Shown here: positions 49,476-64,000 of the stretch, in pieces | Layout of the letters: each line of letters opens with the position of its first letter | How positions within the stretch are numbered: the stretch's first letter is position 1 | Made by a program: the position numbers and the translations under genes | Assembly (NCBI GenBank): GCA_963800195.1 | Contig: CAWCZZ010000005.1 | Coordinates: forward strand, 18,483-82,482 | Direction of reading: 5' to 3' | Source: an uncultured Acidobacteriota bacterium | GTDB lineage: Bacteria; Acidobacteriota; Terriglobia; Terriglobales; Acidobacteriaceae | DNA length: 64,000 bases | Notes under the pieces: generated by a model | What the model was told of the DNA's origin: nothing | Databases searched by the model: none | What the model saw: the letters and a program-made list of their open reading frames with translations, nothing else

Positions 49476-50633
49476 TTACTTAAACTCGGCATAGTCTTCC
49501 AGCTTCCAGCCTCCGTTTTGCACGCGGATCACAGCCATGCCCAACTTATCGACTCCCGTGTGGTCGTTCGCCGTGAAGTTGAACACCGCCATCGCTCCCT
49601 TGTATCCCTTGGTCTCCTCGATCGCGTTCCGCAGAGCCTCGCGGAATTGCACCGTTCCCGGCTTGGCGCCGCTCTTCAGGGCCTTGGGAATAGCGATCCG
49701 CAAAATGTTCATGGTGTCCCAAACTTGCGCTGCAAACGGCGAACGCAGACCGAACTTGGGCTCGTAAGCATTGCCAAATTTGGTCGCTTCGGCCTTGGTG
49801 GGATAACCCGCAGGCAACTGTTCATAGACGAAAACCGGAGACTGCGTTACATAGATGCCTTCGATTGCCTTCCCGCCAAGGCGCAGGAATTCCGGATTGG
49901 CGACGCTGCCGGTGTGGTAGATCTTGCCCTTGTAGTTGCGCTCCACCAGCGCAAAGTTAGGCGTCGCTGCGGTGGTTCCAACCGCCGCAATGTACACCGC
50001 GTCGGGATTCCCACTTACGATCCGAAGCACCTGCGGAGTGACGCCGTTATCGCCCTTCGAGAATTTCTCTACGTCCAGGATTTTGATCCCTTTGGGCCCC
50101 GCCTGCTTTTTCAGTTCATCGGCGTTGCTCTCGCCGAACGGATCGTCGGTGGCGATAATCGAGACGGTCTTCACTCCCTTTCTCACCATGTTCCTCACCA
50201 TGGTCGCGATGTACAGGTCGACGTTGCCGCCGATCTTGAAGACCCATCGCCGCCTCGCATCCATCGGCTCGACGATTGCAGTAGCCGAACCAAATGAGAA
50301 CATCGGTGTCTTTAGCTGTGAAACCGTGTCGATCACGGCCAGCGATGTCACGGTGAGGCTCGGCCCAAGCAGCGCGTCGATGTTGTCTTCTAAAATGAGG
50401 CGCTTCACATTCTGCACTGCCATCGTCGGATCGGAGGCGTCGTCGTACACCACGTACTTCACTTTGAGTCCGGCGATCTCGCCAGGCGCCAGGGTCAACG
50501 CATTCTTTTCCGGAATGCCCAGCGAAGCTCCCGGCCCGGTGGTGGAGATATCCACACCGATGGTGATCTGCGCCTGCACCAGCAGAGCGGCGAAGACCAT
50601 GCATGACAAGACAAAAATAGACCTGCTTCGCAT
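49476..50633 (-). CDS. ABC transporter substrate-binding protein (LivJ/branched-chain amino acid type)
   Basis: A signal peptide followed by a periplasmic-binding-protein type 1 pattern (IGVDISTTGPGASLGIPEKNA...YDDASDP). Confidence 0.75.
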   Translation of the reverse strand: MRSRSIFVLSCMVFAALLVQAQITIGVDISTTGPGASLGIPEKNALTLAPGEIAGLKVKYVVYDDASDPTMAVQNVKRLILEDNIDALLGPSLTVTSLAVIDTVSQLKTPMFSFGSATAIVEPMDARRRWVFKIGGNVDLYIATMVRNMVRKGVKTVSIIATDDPFGESNADELKKQAGPKGIKILDVEKFSKGDNGVTPQVLRIVSGNPDAVYIAAVGTTAATPNFALVERNYKGKIYHTGSVANPEFLRLGGKAIEGIYVTQSPVFVYEQLPAGYPTKAEATKFGNAYEPKFGLRSPFAAQVWDTMNILRIAIPKALKSGAKPGTVQFREALRNAIEETKGYKGAMAVFNFTANDHTGVDKLGMAVIRVQNGGWKLEDYAEFK

Positions 50634-51105: not shown

Positions 51106-51693
51106 CTATCTTGCTTCGCAGGTGGAAGCCTGACGGCTGTTGGGGAGTTGAGCTTCGATGCGCACCGAGACCGGCGGCTTCCTGGGGGGAAGGAGTGCCG
51201 CGGGCTGGGTGGGATCGTGCTCATCCCCGGCTTCGCTGGAGGCAAAGACAGGCCGAAGGAGACCGACCTCAAGGAGGACTGCGGAGAGGGAGTCAAGGGC
51301 TGCGGCGTAGCGGCGCTCGGCACGCTGCACGGTAATGCCGAGACGGAGTGCCGCTTCCGGGATGCTGTAGTCGAGCAGAATAACGCCGGCGATGATCTCC
51401 AGAGATTGACGCTTGATGCGCTCAAAGACGCGCTCAATGTCATGGACGAAGATCACGGCATCCTCAAAGGTGTTGAGTTTGTAGGAGCTGACGCGGGCGC
51501 GGAAGCAGAGGCCTCCGAGGATGCTTGGCAAGCGTCCGATGTCAACCGCCGTGCGGAAGTAGCGCCGCAGGAGGGCGCGTGTGTAAGAGCGATAAGCGCT
51601 CAAGTTGGCGGACGCGGATTGCCGGTTGCGTCCGCCGGAGACGAGGCGCATTGCGGAGTTAGCGGGACGATCGTTCATGCTTGCATCGTTCAT
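51106..51693 (-). CDS. sigma-70 region-4-like / HTH regulatory protein (phage early gene?)
   Basis: The internal ATG at 51693 overlaps the upstream stop (ATGA). The C-terminal LLDYSIPEAALRLGITVQRAERRYAAALDSL resembles a sigma region 4 HTH. Confidence 0.4.
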   Translation of the reverse strand: MNDASMNDRPANSAMRLVSGGRNRQSASANLSAYRSYTRALLRRYFRTAVDIGRLPSILGGLCFRARVSSYKLNTFEDAVIFVHDIERVFERIKRQSLEIIAGVILLDYSIPEAALRLGITVQRAERRYAAALDSLSAVLLEVGLLRPVFASSEAGDEHDPTQPAALLPPRKPPVSVRIEAQLPNSRQASTCEAR

Positions 51694-51893
51694 GCCTGCA
51701 CCTCCGCCCGAAGCCGGGTCCAGCACTGCAGAAAGGAAACTGGACGGTCGAGCAGAAGCGAGGCTTCCGCCCTGGCGCACGGCGCGCAATGGATGAGGGC
51801 GCTGCCCGAACGGCGAAGCCAGATGTTGCCACAACGTTCGCAATACTTGAGTTCCATGTGGCGCAAGTGTGGTAGTTCGTTTTTTGCTTTCAT
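51690..51893 (-). CDS. small zinc-ribbon protein
   Basis: MKAKNELPHLRHMELKYCERCGNIWLRRSGSALIHCAPCAR carries two CxxC pairs. Translationally coupled to the next gene. Confidence 0.4.
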   Translation of the reverse strand: MKAKNELPHLRHMELKYCERCGNIWLRRSGSALIHCAPCARAEASLLLDRPVSFLQCWTRLRAEVQA

Positions 51894-52107
51894 TGTTTTC
51901 TGCCCCCCTGCAAGAAAAAATCCTGCCGCCGGCAACGGGTGATGCTTGCAGGAGCTGGGCTCCAGCAAGCATCACGACAATGCCAACGACAGGGCTCGAT
52001 TAGTTTGCGATGACCTGTTTGTTATGAAAGTTGAAGCAGCGCGTCCTGAATACGACCATGGATTTGCCGTCAACTGAGTTGCTGTTTGCTTCTTCCTGAG
52101 ACCGGAA

Positions 52108-52323: not shown

Positions 52324-52466
52324 GCTCTAGCTCCTCGTTTGATAGCCAATTGGTTTATCGGGTGAATCATTGAGTAGGGGGTAAGGGGAAGTCAACTAGA
52401 TATTGCTAGTAGTTGTTACTAAAGTTTTTAATCAATTCTAAAAGTTATAGTCCGCGAGGCAGCGCG

Positions 52467-53174
52467 ATGTTGATTTCAGATTTGCAGGATCGTCTGCGGG
52501 CTCTGGTTGGTGAGCGCATTGATGCCGGTGAGTTGTCAGGGACGAAGTTGGCAAAGCTGGCCGGTTTTCAGCAAGCGCATGTTTCCAATTTTCTAAATCG
52601 ACGCAGGGGATTGAGCATCGAGGCGATGGACCGGATCATGGAGGTCCTACGGCTGGACGTTCGCGACCTGACGCCGGAGGAGCGCAGACGGAGAGAACCG
52701 GCAGGTGGCGGTGAAGCCGGCTTTGATTCGATTCCAATGGTGCGGAACGAGGATTTGTTGCGGCGCGATTTCAATGCCGGCAGGGTCATTGAGTATCTGC
52801 ACTTCAAGAAGAGCTTTTTGCGGCGGCTTCGTCCGGAGATGGCGAACCAGCGCCAACATTGGCAGCGCTTTGTGCTGATCAAGGCAGATAAGGATTGTGG
52901 TGCGGCGATGAGTCCGAGGTTGCCGCCGGGAGCGACGCTGTTGATCGACCGGCACTACAACTCGCTGCGCTGCTACCGGCGGATGGAGCCGAATCTATAC
53001 GTTGTAAAGAGCGGCGACGACTTTGTGGTTCGCTATGTGGAGATGCAAGGGGACCAACTTACGCTTCGTCCCGAGAATCCGAAGCATGCTCTGGGATGGG
53101 TGCGGTTGGGCAAGGGCGAGACATTTGCGGACTGCGTGGTTGGACGGGTGGCTATAGTCGCGATGGAAATTTAA
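52467..53174 (+). CDS. CI/LexA-like repressor (XRE HTH plus S24 peptidase-like C-terminal domain)
   Basis: LAKLAGFQQAHVSNFLNRRRGLSIEAMDRIMEVL is an HTH. The C-terminal AAMSPRLPPGATLLIDR...YVVKSGDDFVVRYVE has the S24 Ser...Lys layout. Confidence 0.6.
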   Translation: MLISDLQDRLRALVGERIDAGELSGTKLAKLAGFQQAHVSNFLNRRRGLSIEAMDRIMEVLRLDVRDLTPEERRRREPAGGGEAGFDSIPMVRNEDLLRRDFNAGRVIEYLHFKKSFLRRLRPEMANQRQHWQRFVLIKADKDCGAAMSPRLPPGATLLIDRHYNSLRCYRRMEPNLYVVKSGDDFVVRYVEMQGDQLTLRPENPKHALGWVRLGKGETFADCVVGRVAIVAMEI

Positions 53175-54158: not shown

Positions 54159-54650
54159 ATGGACATGACGTGGGTGACTGACCGGATCGCGGTCGGCGGC
54201 GGAATCTGGGTGGAAGAGCGAATGGCCGAGGTGGCACGGGCCGGGGTGACGCACGTCATCGACATGCAGATGGAGTTCGACGACACAGCGCTGGGCGAAC
54301 GAGTCGGAGTGAAGGTGCTGTGGAATCCGGTTGACGACGACTTTGAGCCGAAGCCGCGAGAGATCTTCGAGCGCGGAGTTCGATTTGCGATGGGGGCGTT
54401 GGAAGATCCGCTGGCGAAGGTGTTTGTGCACTGCGCGGCGGGAGTACATCGTGCTCCGATGATGGCGCTGGCGGTGCTGTGCGCGACGGGATACTCGCTG
54501 GAGCAGGCGAAGCGTTTGATCCAGACGAAGCGGTATGTGGTGGACTTTGCCGAGGTGTATGTCCGCAGCGTGGAGCGCTTTCTTGCGGGCTACGCGGAAA
54601 GCAAGGGCGGAGCGGGAATGAGCCGAAAGGACGGCGACAGAAGAGCATGA
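54159..54650 (+). CDS. dual-specificity / Cys-based protein phosphatase
   Basis: VHCAAGVHRAP is the HCxxGxxR P-loop. 163 aa from the ATG at 54159. The stop overlaps the tail-fibre ATG (ATGA). Confidence 0.7.
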   Translation: MDMTWVTDRIAVGGGIWVEERMAEVARAGVTHVIDMQMEFDDTALGERVGVKVLWNPVDDDFEPKPREIFERGVRFAMGALEDPLAKVFVHCAAGVHRAPMMALAVLCATGYSLEQAKRLIQTKRYVVDFAEVYVRSVERFLAGYAESKGGAGMSRKDGDRRA

Positions 54651-57600
54651 ATACGAGAGCGATGGGAAGTTCAAGCCGCCTTTTGGGGCGGCTTATCATT
54701 TTTGTGTGGGCGGGGCTATTTTTGGGCGCGGCAGGGGCGAAGGCGACTCCAGTGAAGGCGCTGGTGCAGGACACTCTGTACCGGGCGGACGGAAGCGCTG
54801 CACAAGGCGACATCACGATCCGCTGGACTGGGTTTTCGACGAGTGCGGGAGAGGCGGTGGCGGCTGGGCAGATGACGGTGAAGACGGACGCCAACGGCGG
54901 AATTGCAATCCCTCTGATTCCGAATACGGGGGCGAGCCCTTCGGGAAGCTACTACAGAGTTGTGATCAAGCTGGACGATGGAACGACGAGCGAGGAAATG
55001 TGGGTTGTTCCGGCGGTGGCGACGACGACGGTGGCGACGATCCGGGCGAAGATTGTGCCGCAGGCAGTAGCAGCGCAGTTTGCGAGCGTTGACTACCTGG
55101 ACACAGAACTGGCCGGAGTGGTGCATCTGGCAGGGACGGAGACGATCCAGGGCGCAAAAACCTTTGTGCCTTCGCCGCAGGTTCCGGCGCCAACGGCGGC
55201 GGGTGGAGCGGCGAATAAGGGCTATGTGGACCAGGCGATGGCAGGGCTGGCGACGGTGGCTTCGACGGGAAATTATAACGATCTGCTGAACAAGCCGGCG
55301 GGTGCGAATCTGGCCTCGCCTGGAGCGATCGGCGTGGTCGCTCCAGGGCCGATAAACGCAACGGCGTATACGGTAAATGGAGCGCCGCTGGCAAGCGCGG
55401 ACCTGAGCGATGGTGCGTTGCTGGCAAAAACCAGCACCACGATCAACGGTTTTCCAATCTCGTCGAACGTAACGCTGTCGGCTTCCAATCTAACGATGGG
55501 AGCGTTGCCAAACGGCACGACAGCTACGACGCAGGCAGCCAACGACAACTCGACGAAGTTGGCGACAACGCAGTATGTGACTTCTTCACTTGCCGCGCCT
55601 GGCGCGATAGGCAGCACCACGCCGGGATTAGTCAACGCGACCAACGTCAATGCGTCAGGCAGCGTCGCGGCGGGGACGACGTGTCCGGCAAGTTATCCAT
55701 CGGGAACGCTGTGCGCGAAGATGGTCAACGGGATGATTAACGCCGTTGGCTACGGGGCTGACCCAACCGGAGTGAGCGACAGCGGGGCGGGGATTCTGGC
55801 CGCAGTGGTGGCGGCGACCACCACCAATCCAGGGCTGGAGTCGAACACGATTTATTTCCCCTGCGGCGACTACTCGATACATGAAGTTGATCTTAGCTCC
55901 TACGGCAACCTGATGCTAAAGGGCGAAGACAACGATATGTGTGTTCGCTTCTTCTATAACGGTGCGGGTGGGGTGGGAAGCTATCTGCTCAAGACGGGGC
56001 CGCTGACTTCAGGCGGCTTGCAATACCTTCGCTTCTTCGGCACCGCGAGCACCTACGCCAGTTCAATTACCACGCTGGCGCAGAACGCCCTCATCATCGC
56101 TCAGGCCGATTCGATGACTACGCTGGAACATTTGAGCTTTGTCACTTTCTTCGGCGATGCGGCAGTATTCACGTATGGGCCGACCAATCTTTACATGCGG
56201 CACTTCCGCGCCGATGCGGTGGGTGGCTACGTAATCGCCATTGCGGCAAACAATACCGCCGACGGCGATCCAATCCATCTTTACGACTTCACGGTGGACA
56301 ACGTGCCGAGCAGTTTGCTCAACAGCTTTGTCGCGGCCAATCCCTACACCACCGGCGCGGTATCAACGGTTTCGATTGCAACTGCCGGGTCGGGCATGAC
56401 CAATGGAACGTATTTAGTCCCGGCAACGGGAACGAGCCTCGCGCTCCGCCTATGTGCAGATTGTGGTATCGGGCGGGGTGCTGACTCAGGCAACGGTGCT
56501 TGGCGAAGGCTCGCAGTACACTACGGCTCCGACCTTTAATCTGGCTAACGCGACCACGATGAGCGGTGGCACGATTGGCGGCGGCTTGGGCGGCACGCTG
56601 GGCACGCTGACGGCAACCTTGGGCACCATCTCCAACACGGCATGGGGCAAGGGCATTTTGTTCTGCTCAAAATGCAGCGGTTGGAGCCTCTACACTGAGC
56701 ACATTCGCTATGAGCACAACTGGCCGGATGTGACCGTAGGCAACGCCGACGAGGGTAGCTACTACTTCAACGACGATGCCAGTTCTTCAACGCCGATCGC
56801 TAGGCTTCAAGAACATGCTGGATATTCAGAACACGAGTTCGCGGCATCCGGTAATCTCGACGGCGCAGGGCTATGTGCAGGCGACGTTACTGGGGCCGAA
56901 CCGCTATTCCTACAACAGTTCAATCTACAAGAACCGTTCGACGCAGCAGGAGTACGGCGATTCCTTTTTAGGGCAGGCAGCTTACTGGAGCTTTGGAAAA
57001 AGTGCGGTGCAGTTCCGGGGAACCTCGATTGAGGGGCAACTGTTCGACAGCATCGGCTCGACTACCACCAACACGCAGCCACGGAAGTTAGGTGACGTGC
57101 TTTATCGCAGCACGGACTTTGTGCCGGGAACCAACGGGCCAATCCGGGTGCTGACTTACCCGGCCACCGGACGCTCGACCATCGACGCGGGCGGGTTGAA
57201 TATCTCGACTACGGCGACGATTGCGACGAACGCCAGCACCGGCACCGCCAACTTTACCGGCTTCAATCCGCTGGCATCGAATCTTCAACTTAACGACAAC
57301 CTGCTGTGCAAGAACTGCGATGCCACGGGCGCGCTGACGGTGCCATTCCAGGTTACATGCATTGATGGCACCGGGAGCGGAACGGTCTGCGCCGGATTGG
57401 GCGCACAGGGCATTGTGGCATCGGTTGCGCCTGGATGTATTGGCGCAAGTACTTGTCCAGCGGCAGGCGCGGAGACTGTGCAGTGGCAGATTGGACAGCT
57501 TGGCGACTTCGGCTTTGAGGCGACCTGGGGCAGTGCGGCACCAAGCAGCGGGACGTATGGCGTGGGGCGCGTGGTGTGGAATACTAACATCAGTAGCGGC

Positions 57601-59073: not shown

Positions 59074-59468
59074 CAAATGTGGAAGAGAAGTTTGTCAGCG
59101 TGCTGGATAAGATTGGCCTGGATTTTGTGAAGGGGCTGAGTGAAGTGCAGAGGTACCTTCCGGCGGCGGCGACCTTGGCGTCGCTGATTTTCCCGGCCGA
59201 TGCGGCGGCGATTGCCGGGGTGGTGAACACGACGCAGCTGATTCAATCGGCGGTTGCCAGCGTGCGGCAGAAGCTGGCGGCGGCGGGGGTGGCGACGGCT
59301 AGCGGAGGTGAGCTGACGGCTGACGTGTTGACGATCGTGACTCCGACGGTGACGCAGTTACTTACCGAGGCGGGAGTGAAGAACGTCAACTCAACCTACA
59401 TCCAGAACATTGTGAATGCGGTGGTGGCGATTCTGAATGTGCAACAGGCTCCGGCCGCAGCGGCATGA
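59064..59468 (+). CDS. hypothetical phage protein
   Basis: MSVANVEEKFVSVLDKIGLDFVKG...; 134 aa from the ATG at 59064, overlapping the previous stop. Confidence 0.35.
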   Translation: MSVANVEEKFVSVLDKIGLDFVKGLSEVQRYLPAAATLASLIFPADAAAIAGVVNTTQLIQSAVASVRQKLAAAGVATASGGELTADVLTIVTPTVTQLLTEAGVKNVNSTYIQNIVNAVVAILNVQQAPAAAA

Positions 59469-59553
59469 TGGCAGGCATGGCGGGAGAGATTTTGTTCCGG
59501 GGCGTGGCGAGGTGAATGGGGTGAAGAAGGCGACGCAGCAGGCAGGGGCGGCC

Positions 59554-61107
59554 ATGCGGAAAAACCAGGTGATGGACATGGCGGCCCTGATGGCGCTAGG
59601 CAAGAGGCTGAACAGACGGACGCGGCGAGGAAGCTATCGCGAGGTGCTGGCGGCGAGTTTGCTGAAGATCCGCAACAAGCGCGGCCGGCTGGTGAAGCTG
59701 GAAGCCAACCTGGCGCAACGGGAATTTGAATCGAAGTGCGGGGCCAAGAACATTGTGCTGAAGGCGAGGCAGATGGGAATCTCGACGTGGGTGGCGGCGA
59801 GATTCTTTCTGAGCACGATTACACGGCCAGGCACTTTGACGGTGCAGGTAGCGCATACGCAAGAGGCGGCGGAGGAGATCTTCCGCATGGTGCACAGGTT
59901 CGTGGAGAATCTGCCACAGGACCTGCGGGGCGGAGCGCTGAAACGATCGAAGTCAAACCGGAGGCAGCTGGTGTTTCCGGGGCTGGACAGCGAGTATCGC
60001 GTGGAGACGGCGGGGGACGCGAACGCTGGCCGGGGACTGACGATCCAGAACCTGCACTGCTCGGAGGTGGCACGGTGGGGAGCGAACGCGCCAGAGGTAT
60101 TGGCGTCGCTGCGGGCCGCCGTGCCACCGGATGGGGAGATTGTGCTGGAGTCAACGGCGAATGGGATGGGCGGGTGCTTCTATCGCGAGTGGCAGAGGGC
60201 GGCGGAGACGGGATACGCGCGGCACTTTTTTCCCTGGTGGATGGACGAGGGATACCGGATCGAGGGAGCGGCGGCCGAGGAGCTGATGGATGGGCCGCTG
60301 AACGAGGAAGAGCTGCGGCTGATGGAGCAGCTTCGGGCTGGACGAGGGCAGATTGCCTTCCGGCGGGAGGTGCAGAGCAACTTCGGCGAGCGGGCGGCGG
60401 AGGAATATGCCGAGGATGCGGCGACCTGTTTTCTGGCCAGCGGCTCGGCGGTGTTTGACACGGCGAAGATCGAGGCACGGATGCGCGGGCTGGCGGCGCC
60501 GATGGAGCAGAGGGAGAACGGACGGATCCTGGTGTGGCTGCCTCCGGCGAGGGAGCGGAAGTACATTCTGGGGGTGGACGCGGCGGGCGGCGGCGCGGGC
60601 GGCGATTATGCCTGCGTCGAGGTGATCGACCAGGTGAGCGGACTGCAATGCGCGGAGCTGTATGGGCACTACACGCCGGAGGAGCTGGCGGCGCAGGCGG
60701 CGAGGCTGGGGCGCGAATACAACGAGGCGCTGATGGTGGTGGAGCGCAACAATCATGGCCACGCGGTGCTGGCGATGCTGGAACGGGTGGAGCAGTACGA
60801 GCCGCTTTTCCGCAACAACCGCTATGCGGGGTGGGTGACGACGGTGCTGACGCGTCCGACGATGCTGGAGCGCTTTGGGGCGATTCTGGTGGCGAATCCG
60901 GAGCTGTTCCAGAGCCGGAAGCTGCTGGAGGAGTGCAGGACCTTTGTGCGGCACGCGGATGGACGGATCGCGGCCTCGGAGGGATCGCACGACGACGCGA
61001 TCATGGCGATGGCGATGGCCCTGGCGGTGCGGGAGCGGGATGAGCGATCCTGGCGAGTGCAGCGAATGGCAGTGAGCGTGCGTATTAGAACAGGTGCGAA
61101 GCGGTAG
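59554..61107 (+). CDS. terL: phage terminase large subunit
   Basis: NIVLKARQMGISTWVAARFF (ATPase entry), LHCSEVARW, VLESTANG, and nuclease half ILGVDAAGGGAGGDYACV...SHDDAIMAMAMAL. The start is uncertain (the ORF opens at 59437). Confidence 0.75.
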   Translation: MRKNQVMDMAALMALGKRLNRRTRRGSYREVLAASLLKIRNKRGRLVKLEANLAQREFESKCGAKNIVLKARQMGISTWVAARFFLSTITRPGTLTVQVAHTQEAAEEIFRMVHRFVENLPQDLRGGALKRSKSNRRQLVFPGLDSEYRVETAGDANAGRGLTIQNLHCSEVARWGANAPEVLASLRAAVPPDGEIVLESTANGMGGCFYREWQRAAETGYARHFFPWWMDEGYRIEGAAAEELMDGPLNEEELRLMEQLRAGRGQIAFRREVQSNFGERAAEEYAEDAATCFLASGSAVFDTAKIEARMRGLAAPMEQRENGRILVWLPPARERKYILGVDAAGGGAGGDYACVEVIDQVSGLQCAELYGHYTPEELAAQAARLGREYNEALMVVERNNHGHAVLAMLERVEQYEPLFRNNRYAGWVTTVLTRPTMLERFGAILVANPELFQSRKLLEECRTFVRHADGRIAASEGSHDDAIMAMAMALAVRERDERSWRVQRMAVSVRIRTGAKR

Positions 61108-61250: not shown

Positions 61251-62057
61251 TTGGCGGTTGCGGCGGTACAGCACGTGAGAAGGATGCGGGGCGGGGCGCA
61301 GAGTCATCTGATGCGCTGCTCGGACGGTCACTTCTACGTGGTGAAGTTCCAGGGCAATCCGCAGCACACGCGGGTGCTGGCCAACGAGATGCTGGCGACG
61401 CGGCTGGCGCAGACGGCGGGGCTGCCGGTGCCGGCGACGGAGGTGGTGGAGGTCGATTCCTGGCTGATCGAACACACGCCGGAGCTAAAATTCGAGCTGC
61501 AGCATGGCTCGAAGGCGTGCACGCCGGGGTTGCAATTCGGCTCGCGCTTTGTGGTTCCGCCGCTGGAGGGAATGATCTATGACTACCTGCCCGAGCATCT
61601 GCTGGACCGGGTGCGGAACCTGGGCGCGTTTGCGGGAATTCTGGCGCTGGACAAGTGGACCTGCAATGCGAACGGGCGGCAGGCGGCATTCTGGAAGCGG
61701 AGCCGGGAGCGCAAGTTCACGGTCTCGTTCATCGACCAGGGATACTGCTTCAACGCGGGGGAGTGGTCGTTTCCGGATTCGCCGCTGCGCGGGGTGTACG
61801 CCCGCAATGACGTTTACCGCGAGGTGAGCGGCTGGGAGAGCTTCCAGCCCTGGCTGGGCAACATCGAGAGCATGGATGAGCAGGCGATGTGGCGCTGCGC
61901 CGAGGAGATTCCGACGGCGTGGTACGGCGAGAGCTGCGAGCTGGAGCGGCTGGTGGAAGCCCTGGGGCGGCGGAGAGCAAGGGTGGCCGAGCTGATCCTG
62001 GAGTTCAGGAATTCGAGCCGGGCGCCATTCCCAAAGTGGAGGGACGTGGTGAACTGA
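61251..62057 (+). CDS. HipA-like / protein-kinase-fold protein (small stand-alone kinase)
   Basis: 268 aa. GHFYVVKFQG supplies the Lys, LALDKWTCNANG is a DxxxxN catalytic loop, and SFIDQGYCF is a DxG metal-binding motif. Matches my recollection of the family annotated as HipA family kinase that pairs with DUF3037. Confidence 0.55.
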   Translation: MAVAAVQHVRRMRGGAQSHLMRCSDGHFYVVKFQGNPQHTRVLANEMLATRLAQTAGLPVPATEVVEVDSWLIEHTPELKFELQHGSKACTPGLQFGSRFVVPPLEGMIYDYLPEHLLDRVRNLGAFAGILALDKWTCNANGRQAAFWKRSRERKFTVSFIDQGYCFNAGEWSFPDSPLRGVYARNDVYREVSGWESFQPWLGNIESMDEQAMWRCAEEIPTAWYGESCELERLVEALGRRRARVAELILEFRNSSRAPFPKWRDVVN

Positions 62058-62176
62058 GGGAAGAGCTGAGGGGAAAGATGGCGGAAGATGGGGGAAAGGG
62101 TTGGAAAGGGCGGTAGGATGGTGGAGATTCTGGAGGGAGCCGGTTCTGGAGAGCGGCGAGCTGAGAGTCATCGAGG

Positions 62177-62982
62177 ATGAAAGAGCGCCGACAATGCGAG
62201 TTTTTCCTGCTGCGGTATGTGCCCGACGCGGTGAAGGACGAGTTCGTCAACGTGGGCGTGGTGCTGTTTGAGAGCAGCAGCGGCTGGGCCGACGTGCGTT
62301 TTACCAGGGACTGGAAGCGGGTGCGCTGCCTGGATCCGGATGCCGACGTGGAGATGCTGGAAGGGCTGGAGCGGGAGATCAAGGAGCGGTTGCTGGAGGG
62401 CGCGAGCAGCCAGGAATGGCTGCTGAAGCGGATGGAAGATACGTTCTCCAATGCGATCCGGCTGACTCCGGCGAAGGCGGTGCTGGCGGATTCGCCGCAG
62501 GAGGAGATCGGGCGGCTGGCCGAGATGTACCTGGAGCGCGCGAAAAGAGGAGCGCGCACGGCGAGCGGAAGGATGCAGATCTTCCAGACGATGCGGGGCG
62601 AGTTCGAGCGGCAGGGAGTGTGGGGGCTGATGCGGCACAACATCGCGGTGAGCGAGTACACCCATCGCGGCGATCCGCTGAAGATCGACGCGGCCTACCG
62701 GCCCAACGGCACGGTGCATATGTACCAGGCGCTCTCGCTGGAACGGATGTGAACGCGGCCAAGGTGCTGGCGTTTACTTATCCGAAGCTGCGCGAGGGCG
62801 TGCTGCGGGCGGAGCAGGCGGAGGCGTTGCTGACGGCGATTGTGGAGAGCGAACTGGAGCGCGAGGACGACGAGACGATGTTCGCGCTGGAGACACTGTC
62901 GAGCAGCCGGATCATGGTGGCGGCGACCTCGGAGCTGCCGCGGATTGCGGCGAGCGTGCGGCAGAAGATGGGATTGCAGTAG
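62177..62982 (+). pseudogene. DUF3037 domain protein, one frame disruption near 62745
   Basis: The N-terminus CEFFLLRYVPDAVKDEFVNVGVVLFE is the characteristic DUF3037 opening. The C-terminus continues in ORF 62416..62982 (DVNAAKVLAFTYPKLREG...). Confidence 0.55.
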
Positions 62983-62984
62983 GG

Positions 62985-63017
62985 CAAGGTTCAAGGTTTC
63001 AAAGGTTTCAAGGTTCA
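62985..63017. repeat. tandem GGTTTCAA(A/G) units, inverse orientation of the repeats at 43.3 and 44.9 kb
   Basis: caaggttcaaggtttcaaaggtttcaaggttca, immediately after the DUF3037 stop codon. Confidence 0.55.
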
Positions 63018-63133
63018 TAGGGGACGAGGGCTTCATAGGGCACCAGAGGCTGAAGTGAAGCAGAGATTTCAAGAGGACGCTGCGGCGTCCTTTTTTATTT
63101 TGCGCGGGGAAAGCACCCGGCGCGGGGGAGCCA

Positions 63134-64000
63134 ATGAAGATAGGGGAAAAGATCTGGGAGCCGGTGCGGCGGGCGGGGGTGCGGGTGCTGGGAGCGGCAG
63201 ACGCCGCGGCACCGAAGCGCAAGACGGCCCCGCTGCCGTCGATTCTGCAGACGTGGACGTTGGGAACGCGGGCGGAGCTGCTGCCGAAGAAGACGCCGGA
63301 GGCGCTGCGGCGCTTTGCCGAGACGCCGATCGCACGCAAGGCGATCAACACGATCAAGGACCGGGTGGCGGGAATGAACTGGCGCATCCAGCCGCGGCGG
63401 GGACGGGTGCTGGACGAGGAGATGCAAGCAGCGCATCCAGGTGCTGACCGAGACCCTGGAGCAGCCGAATCCGGACGATTCGTTCCGTTCGCTTTGCGAA
63501 GCGGTGCTGGAAGACATCATCGTCGGCGGATATGGCGCGATGGAGCTGCGGCTGACCGGCGACGCGCGGAAGCCGCTGGCGCTGTATCCGGTGGACGGCG
63601 CGACGATCCAGATGCGGGCGGACTGGAATGGCGATCCGAACTCGGTTCGCTATGTGCAGGCGAGGCCCGCTGCTGGCACCGGCGCAGCGGATCGAGCTGA
63701 AGGACAACGAGCTGTCTTATATCCGGCTGAACCCGCGCAGCTACACGCCGTTTGGACTGGGGCGGCTGGAGGTTGCGTTCGAGACGATCCACGAGTTTCT
63801 GGGGGCGCACCGCTTTGCGGCCAAGCTGGCGAGCAACTCGGTGGTGCAGTATGCGCTGTGGATGCAGGACCTGGATCCGGGGCAGCATGAGCGGCTGATT
63901 CGCTGGTGGCAGGACGACATTGAGGGCACGGGGCGGGTTCCGATTCTGACGGCGGAGAACAAGCCGGAGGTGTTGCGCTTTGGCGCGGGGACGGATGCGG
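63134..64000 (+). pseudogene. phage portal protein (partial at window end), two frame disruptions (near 63430 and near 63665)
   Basis: ETPIARKAINTIKDRVAGMNWRI, then (shift) LEQPNPDDSFRSLCEAVLEDIIVGGYGAMEL, then (shift) ELSYIRLNPRSYTPFGLGRLEVAFE...WWQDDIEGTGRVPIL. Confidence 0.65.

Follow-up and report, generated by a model that had tools for sequence, protein, structure and literature searches.

Which function is served by a kinase-like protein and a DUF3037 protein whose genes lie between those for the large terminase subunit (TerL) and the portal of a prophage? This question is raised by a stretch of 64,000 nucleotides (nt) from an uncultured Acidobacteriota bacterium (assembly GCA_963800195.1, contig CAWCZZ010000005.1, positions 18,483 to 82,482), which as a whole is referred to here as the window. 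An earlier note on this DNA had described the order TerL, kinase, DUF3037 and portal, and we recovered all of these features at the same coordinates (Table 1). The genes lie on the same strand, with gaps of 143 nt between TerL and the kinase and of 119 nt between the kinase and the DUF3037 gene. The pair is probably a divergent member, carried by Acidobacteriota phages, of the HipA-like kinase/DUF3037 system (PDC-M66, DS-6, HipAD).

The kinase, its DUF3037 partner and their homologues

The kinase open reading frame (ORF) encodes 268 amino acids (aa) and opens with TTG, a start that is backed by an ATG at the same position in two relatives (L016 and L018). The motifs YVVKF, DKWTCN and IDQG, which the earlier note had taken as a kinase signature, are all present. 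The protein matched the Pfam family HipA_2 (PF20613) with an E-value of 1.1e-12 and 48.2 bits (cut-off 27) over profile positions 6-89 of 240; a match to HipA_C was sub-threshold (23.4 bits, cut-off 30.5) and covered aa 15-69 only. The AlphaFold2 model of the kinase (mean predicted local distance difference test score, pLDDT, 85.6; predicted template-modelling score, pTM, 0.86) was matched by Foldseek to Fam20C, Helicobacter pylori CtkA (TM score 0.62), PI4K II-alpha, HipA, CotH and HipT. The HipA_2 match above the cut-off and the kinase-like predicted fold together bear out the kinase-fold assignment of the earlier note. Among 86 sequences of the kinase family, G14-G15-A16-Q17, K32, D134, N139 and D162 are invariant. 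The protein is a compact protein kinase of the HipA_2 family in which the ATP-binding Lys, the catalytic Asp/Asn and the metal-binding Asp are intact. Sequence searches of the PDB with profiles of the kinase and DUF3037 families gave nothing at E<=1, so that only the fold comparison was informative with respect to the PDB, and the NCBIfam models gave no match to either protein.

The partner ORF opens with CEFFLLRYVPDAVKDEFVNVGVVLFE and matched PF11236 with an E-value of 4e-22, above the cut-off, in agreement with the earlier assignment to DUF3037. Its AlphaFold2 model (pLDDT 82) has two domains that are separated by a disordered linker (122-129), namely the DUF3037 domain (aa 1-120) and a C-terminal domain (130-268, numbered in the frame-repaired protein). 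When the C-terminal domain was compared by Foldseek, weak but consistent matches were obtained to PD-(D/E)xK-type nucleases (XisH, Can2/Card1, Avs4 nuclease domains and viral endonucleases) and, also weakly, to a DUF1828 phage protein. A Pfam scan of the partner found no match beyond DUF3037, and in particular no DUF1829. According to the model, the partner thus consists of an N-terminal DUF3037 domain and a C-terminal domain of predicted endonuclease fold. D166 and D171 are conserved in this C-terminal domain, but no canonical (D/E)xK stands out, which makes nuclease catalysis uncertain.

Both proteins were also matched by the PADLOC models of PDC-M66. The M66B model gave an E-value of 4.8e-16 over positions 4-194 of 281, and the M66A model gave a weak, partial match with an E-value of 2.2e-6 over positions 13-137 of 270. 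A tblastn search of phage genomes led to Escherichia phage PhiR5_1 (PV340545.1), in which a 'HipA toxin' of 249 aa and a 'HipD antitoxin' of 275 aa are annotated right after cI. The PhiR5_1 HipA is a full-length PF20613 protein, and HipD carries an N-terminal DUF3037 domain. In hhalign comparisons, the kinase family aligned with PhiR5_1 HipA over the full length, at 97.9% probability over 208 columns with 28% identity. This alignment takes in the DKW..N loop and the ID(Q/H) motif as well as an IPxEW motif near the C-terminus, and the catalytic residues of the kinase align with DKWILNAD and IDHN of PhiR5_1 HipA. The DUF3037 domain aligned with the N-terminal domain of HipD at 95% probability with 21-25% identity.

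In the Retron-Sda1 operon, a HipA-like kinase and a DUF3037 protein form a stand-alone defence against phage Bas51 for which the retron parts are dispensable (PMC12548924). Deletion of the kinase gene abolishes the defence against Bas51, and deletion of the DUF3037 gene is toxic; the strong genomic association of both families and the PDC-M66 label were noted by the same authors (PMC12548924). In the DefensePredictor study, DS-6 was validated, which is composed of a HipA-family kinase and a DUF3037+DUF1829 protein. A catalytic mutant of the DS-6 kinase loses defence, and a complex of the A and B proteins is predicted by AlphaFold3 (PMC13092281). According to that study, DS-6 had also been discovered independently in E. 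coli prophages, where it received the name HipAD (PMC13092281, citing Brenes & Laub 2025).

The earlier note had regarded the pair as uncharacterised and without an assigned function. This is contradicted by the PDC-M66 matches, by the homologues validated as DS-6/HipAD and as Retron-Sda1-associated defence, and by the GenBank annotation of a HipA toxin and a HipD antitoxin in PhiR5_1. The statement that the kinase-DUF3037 pairing recurs was correct, as the two families co-occur in almost all of the 80 loci described below and in PDC-M66. A toxin-antitoxin, abortive-infection or exclusion role, as the earlier note had also proposed, has been shown or argued for homologous pairs (PMC12548924; PMC13092281) and may apply to the pair in the window as well.

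From the validated homologues, the following mechanism can be proposed. In the lysogen, the DUF3037 protein would bind the kinase and keep it inactive. If another phage infects the cell, or if the antitoxin is lost, the kinase would be released and could then phosphorylate an essential factor of the host; as with HipA and HipT, this factor would most likely belong to translation. Growth would then stop and the infection would be aborted. By the same logic of toxin and antitoxin, the pair would stabilise the prophage as a side effect.

Table 1. Coordinates of the pair and of other prophage features in the window
Feature	Coordinates	Strand	Evidence
TerL, large terminase subunit	59437-61107	+	Terminase_6C E=2e-8, phrog_2 E=1.6e-28
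HipA-like (HipA_2) Ser/Thr-kinase-fold protein, 268 aa, putative toxin/effector	61251-62057	+	PF20613, PDC-M66A, phrog_3162
DUF3037 gene, 5' part, 191-aa ORF, putative antitoxin/sensor	62177-62752	+	PF11236, PDC-M66B
1-nt deletion site breaking the DUF3037 frame	62742-62743	+	DNA alignment with 7 relatives
DUF3037 gene, 3' remainder, 77 codons, -1 frame	62749-62982	+	Repaired protein compared with homologues
Intrinsic-terminator-like hairpin and T-run, between DUF3037 and portal genes	63071-63100	+	10-pair stem
Portal gene, runs past the end of the window	63134-64000	+	tblastn with intact L001 portal; weak Phage_portal match
Dual-specificity (Cys-based) phosphatase, same prophage	54159-54650	+	DSPc E=8.6e-10, HCAAGVHR
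cI/LexA-like repressor	52413-53174	+	Pfam HTH_31 and Peptidase_S24

From its cI/LexA-like repressor, which combines a helix-turn-helix (HTH) and a Peptidase_S24 domain, the element is recognised as a temperate phage. Host genes stop near 50.7 kb, and the ORF at 49476-50633, beside the prophage, encodes a periplasmic binding protein. The repressor gene is located near the left prophage end, and no integrase was seen on that side. A conserved ORF of 264 aa (51148-51942) between the repressor and the host genes is without any family match.

The hairpin between the DUF3037 and portal genes is GC-rich and, with its T-run, suggests that the transcription unit ends before the portal. In 61 of 96 related loci this place is likewise occupied by a hairpin with a T-run, with stem sequences that differ. 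Short tandem repeats were also observed on either side of the module. The repeat CAAGGTTT (3.9 copies) lies at 62985-63015 of the window, just 3' of the DUF3037 stop. In relatives, TTCAGGGAAAAG (3.6 copies; L017, 9940-9981; also L007 and L009) follows a promoter-like motif and precedes the kinase start, and this repeat is absent from the window. These repeats may be operator-like sites, or merely low-complexity spacers.

Distribution and ancestry of the pair in the phage family

A scan with patterns of the kinase, for which one genome per species was used, yielded 322 relatives, and the best 80 of these 322 were examined as genome loci. Nearly all of the 80 loci carry Acidobacteriota/Terriglobia labels, and four have other bin labels. 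TerL, kinase, DUF3037 and portal are found in this order on one strand in almost all of them, even when the TerL identity is as low as about 50-60%. L065 and L082, in which the DUF3037 gene is short and divergent and neither TerL nor portal is present, deviate from this order, as do short contigs that are cut at their end. When prophage and viral loci are taken together, about 100 Acidobacteriota loci keep the pair in this position.

As the 80 loci had been selected on the kinase, IMG/VR was scanned with TerL and portal profiles, and 24 distinct contigs of the phage family were obtained. The pair is present in 21 of these contigs, and the remaining three (L092, L171 and L175) have the portal immediately after TerL. 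In a neighbour-joining tree of the portal, the pair-less contigs are nested at two places within clades that have the pair, and the pair is present on the deepest branches. This nesting indicates that the pair is ancestral in this phage family, that it is dispensable and that it is not structural. It has been vertically retained, is nearly fixed and was lost at least twice. The term 'moron', used in the earlier note, therefore fits in part: the pair is dispensable (absent from 3 of 24 contigs) and ends with a terminator-like hairpin, but it is ancestral and nearly fixed, and not a sporadic insertion.

Over 59 loci, the median identity to the window was highest for the kinase (68%), followed by the portal (66%), TerL (57%) and the DUF3037 protein (52%). 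The kinase was more conserved than TerL in all 59 loci, and in 44 of them its conservation also exceeded that of the portal. A conserved effector with a fast-evolving partner fits a conserved toxin that is accompanied by a sensor or antitoxin. The co-divergence of the kinase with portal and TerL was weak (correlations of 0.33-0.37, compared to 0.60 for portal and TerL), which fits both module exchange and saturation.

Other genes were also observed at the TerL-portal junction of relatives. These are a DDE transposase, IS200-like transposases, a PIN_3 toxin gene and second DUF3037 copies (L038, 12051-13271; L084, 12578-13051; L073, 11513-12037; L095, 10084-10491; L035; L096), and one IS200-like insertion splits the kinase gene from the DUF3037 gene. 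The presence of insertion sequence (IS) elements, the PIN toxin gene and extra DUF3037 copies indicates that the junction tolerates insertions. A variant arrangement outside a packaging module is found in L065 (7154-10843) and also in L082. The L065 kinase is 66% identical to that of the window, the DUF3037-only protein of 148 aa is divergently transcribed, and the locus adjoins a large serine recombinase. The prophage family is very widespread in metagenome-assembled genomes (MAGs) of Terriglobia, and one MAG contains two copies on different contigs (L007 and L008).

Frame breaks in the window copy

In comparison with seven relatives, the DNA of the window lacks one base in the DUF3037 gene. 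Homologues in relatives are single DUF3037 proteins of 268 aa, to which the repaired protein of the window is 94% identical over 100% of its length, so that the frame break reported in the earlier note is real in this sequence. At the break site, intact homologues read SLE(T/A/S)DVNAAK. The remainder of the gene begins with GTG, and this codon and the TGA stop overlap in the sequence GTGA. In the structural model, the break corresponds to residue 190, which is predicted to lie inside the C-terminal domain, between a strand and a helix, and not at a domain boundary. The 191-aa ORF holds the DUF3037 domain and only the first half of the endonuclease-like domain.

The portal gene is broken as well. 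A tblastn search with the intact L001 portal gave matches in three reading frames. The gene is interrupted by 1-nt insertions at 63428 and 63664, and both are unique to the window when compared to the seven relatives. In total, three coding indels (62742, 63428 and 63664) fall within 0.9 kb, and TerL and the kinase have none. A further 1-nt insertion at 63110 lies in an intergenic T/A run. For the host part of the window, tiling of genes by the GC content of third codon positions (GC3) was too noisy at 60% GC to reveal further frameshifts.

A similar split was found in an independent assembly (L168; GCA_903933645.1, CAIZLA010001492.1, 2207-3012), in which a different 1-nt deletion, 6 nt upstream of that in the window, leads to the same 191+77 division of the DUF3037 gene with the same 4-nt GTGA stop/start overlap. 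The split form may thus be tolerated or recurrent, although two cases are no proof. Programmed frameshifting was considered for the DUF3037 break and rejected. No slippery heptamer is present at 62730-62752, intact relatives need no shift, and the deletions in the two split copies differ and are 6 nt apart.

The prophage in the window may either have undergone recent decay or have been mis-assembled at the indel points, and since the portal too carries two 1-nt insertions the local copy may be defective. It is therefore conceivable, although we consider it doubtful, that this copy is a non-functional relic of a decaying prophage, in which the DUF3037 and portal genes no longer function and the kinase is silent or being lost. 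Such a relic would explain why three frame-breaking 1-nt indels, all unique to the window among the relatives compared, occur in so short a segment, and why the DUF3037 break falls inside a folded domain. However, protein identity to the relatives past each break is still 80-92%, which means that any decay must be very recent, and TerL, kinase, phosphatase and repressor are intact. Moreover, similar scattered frameshifts occur in many related MAG loci (L013, L023, L024 and L029), as is typical of assembly errors. The occurrence of the same split in L168 also argues against a relic, and the GTGA overlap could allow both halves to be made.

Alternative readings and comparison with known systems

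Several observations weigh against a HipAD-type defence system. The Pfam and PADLOC matches of the kinase span only the N-terminal half of the models, and the identity to the validated E. coli proteins is just 28% for the kinase and 21% for the DUF3037 domain. No sequence alignment was obtained between the C-terminal half of the partner and the C-terminus of HipD, and the role proposed for this clade is taken only from homologues. In the window itself, the putative antitoxin gene is frameshifted in its C-terminal domain while the kinase is intact. A strict toxin-antitoxin system would predict toxicity from this combination, unless the protein is functional in its split form or the indel is erroneous. 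Evidence that the pair has its own promoter is weak: a sigma-70 promoter scan of 58.3-64 kb found nothing, and the upstream motif TAGAGTATAAC is clade-limited, being found with <=1 mismatch in 10 of 101 upstream regions compared to 2 of 600 shuffles. Finally, near-universal retention at one position and a kinase that is more conserved than TerL are unusual for defence cargo, which normally turns over fast.

Near-fixation and the strong constraint on the kinase make a module of the phage life cycle the main rival. In such a module the kinase would be under the control of the DUF3037 protein, and the phosphatase might counteract it. The kinase would phosphorylate host or phage proteins for the benefit of the phage and would have no part in defence against other phages. 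Host take-over as by T7 gp0.7, lysis-lysogeny control and the timing of packaging are possible roles. T7 gp0.7 is a phage-encoded Ser/Thr kinase that acts on host proteins; it is an early gene product and has no DUF3037 partner. It would be a functional analogue of the window kinase under this rival only, as the fold family is unrelated and no homology is claimed. The ancestry of the pair, its retention in about 88% of the family at a fixed position in the packaging module, and the conservation of the kinase above that of TerL and the portal are all as expected of a life-cycle function. On the other hand, three related phages lack the pair, a terminator separates the unit from the portal operon, and homologous pairs stand alone elsewhere (beside cI in PhiR5_1, in the retron operon of Sda1 and beside a serine recombinase in L065). 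We therefore regard a life-cycle module as unlikely.

The phosphatase, which the earlier note had recognised as a Cys-based enzyme, is of the DSPc type, and its gene overlaps the start of an ORF for a pectate-lyase-like tail protein (54479-56539). Of the 80 genome loci, 57 have the phosphatase at a distance of 5-8 kb upstream of the kinase. This conservation in the same element is in line with a life-cycle module and is compatible with a counter-enzyme, but it is confounded by the shared phage backbone. There is also a slim chance that kinase, DUF3037 protein and phosphatase together form a lineage-fixed phosphorylation switch of the phage, serving host take-over, lysogeny control or addiction, and are not fast-exchanged defence cargo. 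If true, this would explain why the kinase is conserved above the terminase.

A pure addiction module, which would stabilise the prophage by post-segregational killing and have no anti-phage activity, seems quite improbable to us. The toxicity of the DUF3037 deletion in the homologous system (PMC12548924) would be consistent with addiction, and the very high retention along the phage lineage is what a selfish stabiliser would show. However, homologues protect E. coli against phages (PMC12548924; PMC13092281), and both genes were cleanly lost at least twice. A virion structural or assembly component (scaffold or decoration) that merely resembles a kinase, a possibility named in the earlier note, was rejected as highly implausible: position between TerL and portal and conservation in the family are its sole support, and it is at odds with the confident kinase-like fold, the invariant catalytic residues, the relatives that have the same TerL and portal without both genes, and the homologues outside packaging modules.

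A divergent HipA-like kinase/DUF3037 system thus remains the reading that we prefer. It is no new kind of system; the kind is already known, and what is new here is its context, the lineage-fixed TerL-portal position. The range of the recently validated HipAD/DS-6/PDC-M66 system would be widened from Enterobacteria to soil Acidobacteriota, with 322 species-representative genomes found by the kinase patterns alone. Moreover, a defence-type toxin-antitoxin module could stay vertically inherited over the long term at one site of a packaging module, with an effector that is constrained more strongly than the terminase and a partner that evolves fast. Natural controls are at hand in the pair-less relatives and the recurrent split partner, and the phosphatase is a candidate counter-enzyme.

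With HipBA and HipBST, the window kinase shares the kinase superfamily, the catalytic Asp/Asn and a GxGAQ-type loop, and Foldseek matched it to HipA and HipT. The toxins of these systems act by phosphorylation, and the window kinase may do likewise. In contrast to them, the window kinase is not accompanied by HipB or another HTH antitoxin, nor by HipS, and its putative antitoxin is encoded downstream and not upstream. With 268 aa it is also much shorter than HipA (~440 aa), whose N-terminal domains it does not have. A classical HipBA system was rejected, as TerL and not an Xre-type HipB lies upstream, DUF3037 is the sole partner and the HipA_C match is below threshold.

The Retron-Sda1/PDC-M66 pair is built from the same two families; the PDC-M66B model matches the window partner, and the PDC-M66A model matches the window kinase weakly and over 46% of the model. 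The genetics of the Retron-Sda1 pair is of the toxin-antitoxin type, in that the kinase is required for defence and toxicity results when DUF3037 is lost (PMC12548924). Unlike the window pair, it sits in a type III retron operon and occurs in Pseudomonadota and Bacteroidota, and the C-terminus of its DUF3037 protein resembles the retron DNA-binding protein.

In comparison with HipAD/DS-6, several differences are seen. The two genes of PhiR5_1 HipAD overlap by 4 nt and lie beside cI in the immunity region, whereas in the window a gap of 119 nt separates the two genes of the pair, which is flanked by TerL and portal. At its C-terminus DS-6B carries DUF1829, while the C-terminal domain of the window partner has a predicted endonuclease-like fold, no Pfam match and a sequence that cannot be aligned. 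The host phylum is Acidobacteriota, in contrast to the E. coli hosts of HipAD. What the window pair has in common with HipAD/DS-6 is that it is prophage-borne and that the kinase gene comes first and the DUF3037 gene second. In both, the first gene encodes a compact HipA_2 kinase, and the protein encoded next, on the same strand, combines an N-terminal DUF3037 domain with a C-terminal extension of ~150 aa.

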